64,000 nt of DNA, from the NCBI GenBank assembly GCA_963758495.1, contig CAVWVI010000004.1, positions 471,587 through 535,586 of the forward strand, in the 5' to 3' direction. The translations under genes were made by a program, and so were the position numbers. Below the pieces are notes generated by a model, which was given only the letters and a program-made list of their open reading frames with translations, was not told where the DNA came from and ran no database searches. Positions 58,201 to 59,688 of the stretch are shown one piece after another. Positions within the stretch are counted from its first letter, which is position 1. Each line of letters opens with the position of its first letter. Source of the stretch: Oligoflexia bacterium (lineage in GTDB: Bacteria > Bdellovibrionota > UBA1018).

Positions 58201-58400
58201 GCTCTATCCTCGTGAGTGAAGAATTGACGCTACCATCCGTTCCATAAAGACTTATCCAAACCTATCCACATAGCAATTGGAGCTTATATTCTGGTTCAGC
58301 GATGCTGGAGAATACTAGTTCAGCTCCGAATCTAAGTAAACGATCTTTAATTGTAGACGTATCTATTTGAAATTATTATATAATATAGAAAAATCACTTA

Positions 58401-58445
58401 ATACTACAAGTTTTACTACAAAATTTGTAGTAAAACTTGTAGTAT
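58401..58445. promoter_or_regulatory. perfect 45-bp palindrome (22-bp arms, 1-nt centre) directly upstream of the fic start codon
   Basis: ATACTACAAGTTTTACTACAAA a TTTGTAGTAAAACTTGTAGTAT; candidate promoter -35 TTGTAG (58351-58356) and -10 TATTAT (58374-58379) upstream. Confidence 0.7.
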
Positions 58446-58452
58446 TAACACT

Positions 58453-59688
58453 ATGCCGGCCAATGAATTTGAATTCCTAACCTCCCCGACGTGGCTAGAT
58501 TACACTCAGCATCGCTACCTTTCTCCAGATGAGATGAGGTATCGCATGAAGCAACAAAAAAGTCTGCCTACTGACTGGACTGAGCTAGCAAAAAAAGTAG
58601 TGAAATATAGAAAATTCGGTTCAGTTCCTCTCTTCGTAGCATCCATCGATAAGAAATTCTGGTACTTTCCCTCGGATAGTCTGACCCGGAAGATTAACGA
58701 AATCGAAAGACTGGGTATCGACCTTTATCACCGGATCAATCAACAGTCCTTATTCAAACATGATTTTCTTTTAGACTCAGCCATAGAAGAAGCAATTACC
58801 TCAGCAATCTACGAAGGTGCGCACAGCACACGAGCGCAAGCACAACAACTTATTGCATCCGGAAACAAACCTAAGAATAAAGACGAATGGATGCTTGTCA
58901 ATAATCTTAAAGCCATGCAGTGGATTCAAAACAATAGAAATAGGGACGTTACACAAGAACTTATTTTGGAATTGCATCGAATTGCCACCGAACACTCCAT
59001 GGAAGGCGACGATGCAAATTTCTCAGGAAAATTTAGAAATGACAAAATTTTTGTTGGACCCCACGAAGGGATTCAGCATGGACTTATAGAACAAGCGACA
59101 AACGAGGCAATCTTTTTAACAACCCAGAATCCACGCTATATCCATCCCTTGCTGAGAGGAATCCTATTTCATTACTTTATTGCCTATATTCATCCATTCT
59201 TTGATGGAAATGGAAGAACTGCACGAGCCCTCTTTTACTTCAACTCGATGCGAAATCATCTTGATTACATCCAGCTTCTTTCTGTTTCTGCTTATCTTAA
59301 AGAGCATGGATCTCAATATGAAAAGATATTTGAGAAAGTCGTATCGAATGATCTTGATATCACCTATTTTATAGATTTTTGTTTAGATTCAATTCATTCT
59401 GCGCTCTCGGTAGTATCCGAGAAAATCAAATATTTGCTCCAAATTACGGAGTTAAGAGAAAAAGTGGGTCTATCTACTAACCAGATAGGACTGCTACAAA
59501 GAATGGCACTTCATAAGTTCAGAACTGTAAGCATTGAGGAATATGCCGAGCAAATTGCCATGTCGAGAGAAATTGCTAGACAAGAACTCAAGTCACTCAC
59601 TGACCTGGGTCTTATTCAAGAATCTAAACTCGGCAAGAAATTAATATATGGCATCAAAAAGCCTAACCTGGATAACCTGATTAAGTGA
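58453..59688 (+). CDS. fic: Fic-family protein (class II-like, N-terminal inhibitory motif) with C-terminal winged-HTH-like domain
   Basis: Fic active-site motif HPFFDGNGRTARAL; upstream SAIYEG matches the [ST]xxxE[GN] inhibitory motif; C-terminal 70 aa HTH-like. Confidence 0.85.
   Translation: MPANEFEFLTSPTWLDYTQHRYLSPDEMRYRMKQQKSLPTDWTELAKKVVKYRKFGSVPLFVASIDKKFWYFPSDSLTRKINEIERLGIDLYHRINQQSLFKHDFLLDSAIEEAITSAIYEGAHSTRAQAQQLIASGNKPKNKDEWMLVNNLKAMQWIQNNRNRDVTQELILELHRIATEHSMEGDDANFSGKFRNDKIFVGPHEGIQHGLIEQATNEAIFLTTQNPRYIHPLLRGILFHYFIAYIHPFFDGNGRTARALFYFNSMRNHLDYIQLLSVSAYLKEHGSQYEKIFEKVVSNDLDITYFIDFCLDSIHSALSVVSEKIKYLLQITELREKVGLSTNQIGLLQRMALHKFRTVSIEEYAEQIAMSREIARQELKSLTDLGLIQESKLGKKLIYGIKKPNLDNLIK

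Follow-up and report, generated by a model that had tools for sequence, protein, structure and literature searches.

Winged-helix class II Fic enzymes are very common, and some of them are anti-phage defense proteins. To our knowledge, CccR is the only one whose operator has been defined in sequence. Here we analyze a class II fic gene in a 64-kb stretch of the genome of an Oligoflexia bacterium (assembly GCA_963758495.1, contig CAVWVI010000004.1, forward-strand positions 471,587 to 535,586; hereafter the window, in whose own coordinates all features are given), together with a perfect palindrome directly upstream of the gene, to which the phrase "the window's palindrome" always refers. We think it likely, with a probability of roughly 0.7, that this palindrome is the operator by which Fic represses its own gene.

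The class II Fic protein CccR of Yersinia pseudotuberculosis (PDB 7XUX) has a helix-turn-helix (HTH) at its C terminus, and its dimer uses this HTH to repress the promoter of its own gene by way of an inverted repeat close to the -35 and -10 elements, with the two DNA-binding helices 70 Å apart (PMC9755527). SoFic of Shewanella oneidensis (PDB 3EQX, 3ZCN, 9TCH), a dimeric winged-helix Fic protein of class II, shows sequence-specific, dimer-dependent binding to the first 100 bp before its start codon (bioRxiv 10.64898/2026.07.09.737422) and is a single-gene anti-phage protein (PMC12249575). Autorepression has been shown for CccR and is suggested for SoFic, whose operator is unmapped and whose repression has not been demonstrated. 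The 300-bp upstream fragment of SoFic, as given in Table S2 of the same preprint, carries in its distal part CACGTGTATAGATA-N7-TATCTATACACGTG along with copies of TGTATAGA / TCTATACA. CbFic2 of Coxiella burnetii (PDB 8CIL) couples the binding of DNA to dimerization and uses this binding to switch its enzyme activity; the protein binds random DNA with high affinity, and DNA governs its switch between AMPylase and deAMPylase towards histone H3 (PMC10628234). No operator or autoregulation has been described for CbFic2. About 1,800 InterPro proteins have this Fic-winged-helix organization (bioRxiv 10.64898/2026.07.09.737422).

The window Fic has the same overall architecture as SoFic, CbFic2 and CccR. 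Its top Foldseek match is CbFic2 (E 1.9e-6), in which the Fic domain is joined to a DeoR-like winged helix, and SoFic is among its closest solved folds. The PADLOC hidden Markov model for SoFic matches residues 77-395 (E 2.3e-35, 120.7 bits), but the NCBIfam SoFic equivalog NF046030 reaches just 62.9 bits against a cut-off of 550, and the window protein therefore belongs to a related subfamily and is not a SoFic ortholog. No AS1-like small downstream gene such as accompanies SoFic is found at the window locus, where a convergent 468-aa open reading frame (ORF) without a Pfam match (59692-61098, minus strand) begins 3 nt past the end of fic, so that 3 nt separate the two stop codons. With CccR the window Fic has about 19% structure-based identity, and it carries an extra N-terminal region of about 75 residues. 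CccR is an effector secreted by a type VI secretion system, whereas no link to such a system turned up for the window Fic, for which no systematic look was made. The 70 Å between the helices of CccR corresponds, by our arithmetic, to about 21 bp, which is the half-site spacing in the window's putative operator. The CccR operator itself, AGATAATCAT-N26-ATGATAATCT, is nonetheless unrelated to the window's in sequence and geometry, and it offers one pair of half-sites where the window has four boxes and a distal one.

The window also resembles the operators of type II toxin-antitoxin systems (class I FicTA, Phd-Doc), with which it would share a toxic Fido-fold enzyme under negative autoregulation from a palindromic operator over its own promoter. 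In FicTA and Phd-Doc, however, DNA binding and inhibition reside on a separate antitoxin gene, whereas in the window the inhibitory helix and the winged helix both lie within Fic.

The palindrome and its boxes

The palindrome consists of two 25-nt arms (58398-58422 and 58424-58448) that are 100% complementary around a single unpaired A at 58423, as found both by reading the sequence and by a repeat finder. It ends 4 nt before the fic ATG and, counted from the start codon, reaches from -55 to -5. An earlier note on this DNA had described a perfect palindrome of 45 bp with 22-bp arms ending 7 nt before the ATG; the perfect repeat is real, but it is longer, at 51 bp, and lies closer to the gene. 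No other perfect inverted repeat in the window comes near it in length; all other pairs of comparable length are 71-93% complementary, and base composition leads one to expect about 1e-9 such repeats per 64 kb. The G+C content of the stem is 20%.

Within the palindrome, TACTACAA occurs four times, at 58402 and 58414 on the plus strand and at 58425 and 58437 on the minus strand, with two copies per arm 12 bp apart. The element is thus made up of four CTACAA/TTGTAG boxes, which combine into two CTACAA-N15-TTGTAG sites, one interleaved with the other at an offset of 12 bp. In an N15 site the half-site centers are 21 bp apart, about two helical turns, and the interleaving also yields pairs at N3 and N27, one of each. 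Some 100 bp upstream of the fic ATG there is a fifth box (Table 1). The check for other copies of the palindrome that the earlier note had called for came back empty in the window: TACTACAA has no copy beyond these four, and CTACAA-N(3-30)-TTGTAG is absent from the rest of the sequence.

The boxes travel with fic

Genome and metagenome collections, together with exact look-up, gave an ortholog set of 35 Bdellovibrionota loci with 45-77% identity to the window Fic, the closest relatives, at 77%, and the others belonging to the Oligoflexia and Pseudobdellovibrionaceae. The 150 nt upstream of fic in these 35 loci hold 102 exact CTACAA/TTGTAG boxes, where dinucleotide shuffles give 4.0 +/- 1.9. 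Two or more exact boxes are present in 29 of the loci and three or more YTRCAA boxes in 31. By comparison, there are 0.51 boxes per kb upstream of 131 other ORFs in the same DNA and 0.45-0.49 per kb in the remainder of the loci and the window. The logo of the box shows a T-rich stretch, CT[A/G]CAA and a second T-rich stretch, with YTRCAA as consensus, and the prevailing arrangement is convergent: CTRCAA-N15/16-TTGYAG occurs 38 times in 29 loci, with half-site centers 21-22 bp apart. Distal boxes at -100 to -150 are frequent in the orthologs as well, and in 31-33 of the 35 loci the boxes keep the same position relative to fic. Thus fic carries, in its own promoter region, a repeated and palindromic array of operator type, with four boxes between -55 and -5 in the window and box conservation over 35 loci.

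The neighborhoods of the orthologous fic loci are otherwise unrelated. Among 29 loci surveyed within 2.5-3 kb on either side (ORFs of at least 70 aa), no gene family besides fic is common to three or more. As the neighborhoods are unrelated and fic is their sole common family, the boxes travel with fic alone. The same survey led us to reject a two-gene toxin-antitoxin module of the class I FicTA type, for which an adjacent conserved small antitoxin gene would be expected and none was found.

This linkage bears on whether the palindrome could be a structural or mobile-DNA feature without regulatory meaning, such as an insertion scar, an element of the MITE (miniature inverted-repeat transposable element) or REP (repetitive extragenic palindromic) kind, a cruciform or an intrinsic terminator. 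The adjacent thyA region is rearranged, and a scan does place a terminator-like site on the minus strand, where AAGTGATTTT comes after a hairpin; both would suit such an origin. A mobile element is, however, hard to square with a sole copy in the window and with boxes fixed relative to fic across loci. A terminator is no better placed, with a stem so poor in G+C, no T-run on the plus strand and a minus-strand call that has no gene upstream of it; no gene of either strand ends at the palindrome, from which thyA and fic diverge. We consider a purely structural origin extremely improbable.

The earlier note also argued that a perfect palindrome of this length would be kept by selection. Comparison does not bear this out for the palindrome as such, since the conserved parts are only the 6-bp boxes and their spacing. 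Only four loci out of 35 have arms of at least 20 nt, namely the window, L081, L001 and L005. These four long palindromes differ in their spacers and therefore arose separately, presumably by inverted duplication or because a quasi-palindrome was corrected by template switching. We regard the perfect symmetry outside the boxes as a lineage-specific state.

A hairpin in the transcript is the other function that so symmetric an element might serve, and the earlier note had raised a 5' untranslated region hairpin that occludes translation initiation. In such a scheme a 25-bp hairpin, transcribed from a distal promoter that starts near 58386, would limit ribosome access or set the stability of the mRNA. 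The folding energy, computed as the note had proposed, is -29.7 kcal/mol, with a z of -8 against shuffles; the sequences TTGTAG-17-TATTAT and a consensus TATAAT lie upstream, the AUG comes 4 nt past the hairpin with no Shine-Dalgarno (SD)-like sequence before it, and the spacers of the four long palindromes are independently different and yet perfectly symmetric. An RNA element should have a structure that is conserved among orthologs, however, and here the long arms are confined to those four loci; in several orthologs of 69-75% identity the arms measure 5-11 nt, and a z above -2.5 is common among the loci, many of which show no more folding than their shuffles. What is conserved is box sequence and spacing, while the symmetry of the N15 spacer, at 0.41 against 0.29 by chance, is a weak sign of selection on pairing, and we set it aside as such. 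The direct repeats that replace the palindrome in distant homologs (see below) cannot pair, and the hairpin would remain untranscribed if the mRNA were leaderless. In Rfam, the only matches of 58150-58550 were generic hairpin ones, to plant miRNA precursors, and they scored 19-22 bits where cut-offs of 130-230 apply, so that no family reaches its threshold. The 5' hairpin is unsupported as a conserved function and is at most a secondary possibility, and we find it quite improbable that the palindrome acts mainly as RNA.

A winged-helix Fic protein of class II

The fic gene encodes a protein of 411 aa with an N-terminal extension, a Fic core and, at the C terminus, a winged helix (Table 1), and no alternative in-frame start lies between a stop codon at 58399-58401 and the ATG. 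Residues 166-262 match Pfam Fic PF02661 (E 1.6e-13, 51.7 bits against a cut-off of 24), and there is a weak Pfam match to the SoFic-like C-terminal domain. By its motifs the protein is a class II Fic, because HPFFDGNGRTAR, which matches the active-site motif HxFx(D/E)GNGRxxR, is present with SAIYEG upstream. Both motifs had been read correctly in the earlier note. In 26 orthologs, H247, P248, F249, F250, D251, G252, N253, G254, R255, A257 and R258 are invariant and T256 is kept in at least 90%. The inhibitory motif, S117-A-I-Y-E121-G122, is likewise invariant in all 26 and lies N-terminal to the Fic core in one polypeptide. In an AlphaFold2 model (predicted local distance difference test, pLDDT, 78.8), the N-terminal region is followed by the Fic core and then, over residues 342-401, by a C-terminal helix-strand-helix-helix-wing; the model is poorly confident at residues 118-125, in the region of the inhibitory motif.

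The first 100 or so residues have no Pfam match, and a profile search against PDB sequences gave nothing below E 0.78. Residues 1-100 (58453-58750) are nevertheless conserved and modeled with pLDDT above 90, as four helices with a beta-hairpin at 58-71 and a long helix at 75-97. This region is absent from the part of SoFic that the PADLOC model covers and is common to the 27-31% identical homologs of other phyla. In viral contigs we found just four remote Fic matches and none from the subfamily of the window Fic.

The boxes appear to vary with the sequence of the predicted recognition helix. Every locus with YTRCAA boxes has a helix that reads SRExAR(Q/R/K)ELK, and conversely no locus with this helix is without such boxes. 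In one diverged ortholog (L009, 45% identity) the helix reads SDESARMELK, and the upstream region has CTCCAA-N16-TTGGAG and further TTGGAG-like copies in the same layout; in another locus (L096) the helix reads TREMARKGLK and there are no boxes.

Beyond the Bdellovibrionota, full-length homologs of 27-31% identity occur in Bacillota, Bacteroidota, Omnitrophota and others, with a helix that reads (S/A)YETAR.DL. They are preceded by T[AT]GTAG ('TTAGTAG') boxes, usually as 2-6 direct repeats with an 11-bp period, at a density of 7.1 per kb compared with 0.64, while upstream of other Fic subfamilies T[AT]GTAG boxes are not enriched (0.5 versus 0.82 per kb). Some of these boxes sit between or over sigma-A-like -35 and -10 hexamers, and in several Firmicute loci they lie exactly between a TTGnnn -35 and a TAAAAT -10. 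Two of the Bacillota homologs (L014, L029) carry 4-6 direct TAGTAn repeats with an exact 11-bp period, an iteron-like pattern. In an Emticicia locus (L015, Bacteroidota), a palindrome with 21-nt arms, TATTACTAATATCTACTAATT / AATTAGTAGATATTAGTAATA, lies about -110 to -60 from the fic start and, like the window's, has two boxes in each arm. Three plasmid-borne full-length homologs (Ilyobacter, Klebsiella and Persicobacter) each have different repeats or palindromes of their own, which fits the idea of family-specific operators.

Given that the boxes are linked to fic alone, that helix and box correspond and that distant homologs have boxes too, the protein's own winged helix appears to be the most economical candidate for binding them. 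The boxes, with their spacing, enrichment and link to fic alone, the winged-helix fold and the class II motifs are what the data show directly; Fic as the binding protein, repression by binding, its stoichiometry and the position of the promoter we infer. The operator for a dimeric repressor, possibly the C-terminal HTH of Fic, that the earlier note had proposed thus gains strong comparative support from boxes that are kept in unrelated contexts, from their change together with the helix in one diverged ortholog and from the winged helix itself.

A dedicated repressor encoded elsewhere in the genome might bind the boxes in place of Fic. Many operators are recognized by unlinked regulators, and the identity of the binder here is reached by inference. 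Such a repressor would, however, have to account for boxes that follow fic across 35 loci without a conserved neighbor, and the related boxes of distant homologs would require the regulator to be co-transferred every time. The box sequence, moreover, changes where the Fic recognition helix changes, Fic has a winged helix of the regulator type, and both CccR and SoFic bind their own promoters. An unlinked repressor is, in our judgment, very unlikely.

Where the promoter may lie

Two positions of the promoter can be considered. The distal candidate is the sequence TTGTAG-17-TATTAT, which the earlier note had taken as a plausible promoter and in which the fifth box doubles as the candidate -35 hexamer. 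The sequence is as described and plausible, but it was not listed in a consensus sigma-70 scan, which gave one weak site, not above shuffles, and a leaderless start has emerged as an alternative. Transcription from the distal promoter would start near 58386-58391 and would place the palindrome at about +8 to +60. When the orthologs were scanned with a position weight matrix, no one distal promoter came out consistently, but CTACAAT and TTGTAG were often seen to serve also as -10-like and -35-like hexamers, and in several other orthologs the boxes themselves read TTGTAG-17/18-TACAAT, with a -35-like and a -10-like element.

The proximal candidate comes from translation signals. In the clade with at least 69% identity (12 loci including the window) none of the 12 has an SD-like sequence, and nine carry TAnnnT at 5-7 nt upstream of the start codon. 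Of the other 23 loci none has such a TAnnnT and 13 have an SD, and among control ORFs the TAnnnT hexamer is found in 21 of 142. A TAnnnT at a conserved position together with the lack of an SD in the clade is the pattern expected of leaderless mRNA, which suggests a leaderless promoter inside the operator in the window's clade. Translation signals switch between clades, with L001, L081-L084 and L102-L109 set against the other ortholog loci, and more distant orthologs often carry TTGTAGGAG, in which the last box runs into the SD. With the proximal promoter, the whole palindrome would lie over the core promoter. Both geometries are compatible with repression. The earlier note counted a transcription start downstream of the palindrome, together with no binding by Fic or other factors, as a refutation; given the leaderless alternative, such a start would leave the operator standing.

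Proposed autorepression and possible control of the enzyme

Autorepression by the window Fic could work as follows. Fic dimers, or a higher oligomer, would bind the boxes through the C-terminal winged helix, whose recognition helix includes SREIARQELK. If the mRNA is leaderless, the cluster would cover the core promoter, with the -10-like TAGTAT overlapping box 4, and if the distal promoter is used, the cluster would lie just downstream of the transcription start. From either promoter, bound Fic would block transcription, so that a potentially toxic AMPylase would be kept low and self-limited.

Several points weigh against autorepression. The proposed binder is deduced from co-inheritance only, and for the co-change of helix and box there is a single clear example, L009, beside a locus that lacks boxes, L096. 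The boxes in other phyla are direct and not inverted repeats, which does not match a simple symmetric dimer, and the two N15 sites, 12 bp apart, lie on nearly the same face of the DNA, where two dimers could get in each other's way. The geometry of repression is uncertain in that the window has no predicted strong sigma-70 promoter. Lastly, CbFic2 binds DNA without evident sequence specificity and uses it to control the enzyme, not transcription (PMC10628234).

The precedent of CbFic2 raises the question of whether binding to the boxes mainly controls the enzyme, with the array as a docking or oligomerization platform that would hold Fic as an inactive or de-AMPylating dimer. In CbFic2, DNA binding through the HTH leads to dimerization and switches AMPylation to deAMPylation (PMC10628234). 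Four proximal boxes and a distal one exceed the needs of simple repression, and the window Fic matches the PADLOC SoFic defense model, whose toxins need tight post-translational control (PMC12249575). A single chromosomal site, however, could titrate only a few molecules, the DNA binding of CbFic2 appears to be non-specific where the boxes here are sequence-specific, and the position of boxes over promoter elements in Firmicute homologs points to transcriptional control. Enzyme control as the main role of the boxes is unlikely, although it may coexist with autorepression.

Autorepression might also be part of something larger. It is conceivable that the multi-box array assembles a DNA-bound Fic oligomer whose AMPylase stays off until a signal, for example phage infection, frees the protein and its transcription, and that the T(T/A)GTAG array is an ancient operator co-inherited from Bdellovibrionota to Bacillota, Bacteroidota and Omnitrophota with a Fic-winged-helix subfamily that is marked by an uncharacterized N-terminal domain of about 75 residues. 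This extension is speculative and, taken as a whole, rather unlikely. If it were true, toxin, antitoxin and repressor would be united in one polypeptide with its own DNA as an allosteric partner.

Genomic surroundings

The upstream neighbor of fic is thyA, which is divergent and broken, as the earlier note had seen, and the 252-nt spacer between the two genes contains no ORF of 40 aa or more. A second set of repeats lies in this spacer at 58280-58324, with direct repeats ATTCTGGTTCAGC / ATACTAGTTCAGC at a distance of 24 nt as well as an imperfect inverted repeat, GAGCTTATATTCT / AGAATACTAGTTC, and it may belong to the control of thyA. The thyA gene (57366-58200, minus strand) is full-length as DNA but has at least two frame changes, with Pfam fragments at 57565-58200 and 57419-57604. 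Its 3' end occurs a second time, 75-87% identical, at 55692-55969, and the approximately 1.4 kb between the copies holds three minus-strand ORFs (Table 1). The arrangement of 55692-58200 suggests that the 3' end of thyA underwent an insertion or a duplication.

Some fic orthologs have a phage-type integrase gene, a HEPN_AbiV gene or both at 1-2 kb. The loci concerned are L102/L103 (4226-5254; 2572-3600), L104 (1-1156) and L108 (1-477), and these contexts hint at mobile or defense islands.

Table 1. Features of the fic locus and its upstream region in the window
Feature	Coordinates	Strand	Remarks
DUF4160 protein ORF	55966-56157	-	
161-aa ORF between the thyA copies	56196-56681	-	identity unknown
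SLT lytic transglycosylase ORF	56656-57339	-	
Distal TTGTAG box	58351-58356	-	candidate -35 hexamer of the earlier note
Candidate distal -10 elements	58374-58384	+	TATTAT (58374-58379) overlapping consensus TATAAT (58379-58384)
51-bp perfect palindrome, putative proximal operator cluster	58398-58448	.	sequence, repeat finder, base-composition expectation
Box 1, CTACAA	58404-58409	+	N15 pair with box 3
Box 2, CTACAA	58416-58421	+	N15 pair with box 4, N3 pair with box 3
Box 3, TTGTAG as read on the plus strand	58425-58430	-	
Box 4, TTGTAG as read on the plus strand	58437-58442	-	overlaps the proximal -10-like hexamer
Candidate -10 hexamer TAGTAT	58440-58445	+	7 nt before the ATG; leaderless-promoter candidate
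fic, 411-aa class II Fic	58453-59688	+	N-terminal extension, Fic core, C-terminal winged helix
SAIYEG codons, inhibitory-helix motif (S/T)xxxE(G/N)	58801-58818	+	residues 117-122; invariant in 26 orthologs
HPFFDGNGRTAR codons, Fic active-site motif	59191-59226	+	residues 247-258
Winged helix-turn-helix domain	59476-59655	+	residues 342-401
Predicted recognition helix	59566-59604	+	residues 372-384; SREIARQELK is residues 371-380

Implications

The window's putative operator reveals no new principle. What is new is the sequence of the operator and its multi-box architecture, its retention throughout a large subfamily together with the related boxes found in other phyla, and, probably, the leaderless arrangement in the window's clade. 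The comparison provides a testable operator, YTRCAA-N15/16-TTGYAR, for the whole of an uncharacterized Fic subfamily. The natural variant that pairs an altered helix with an altered box, together with the TAGTAG arrays found elsewhere, could allow the DNA-recognition code of Fic winged helices to be worked out, and a compact pair of repressor and operator would be usable for engineering. For the biology of these proteins, the putative operator supports the idea that self-repression is a general safety device of single-gene Fic toxins.

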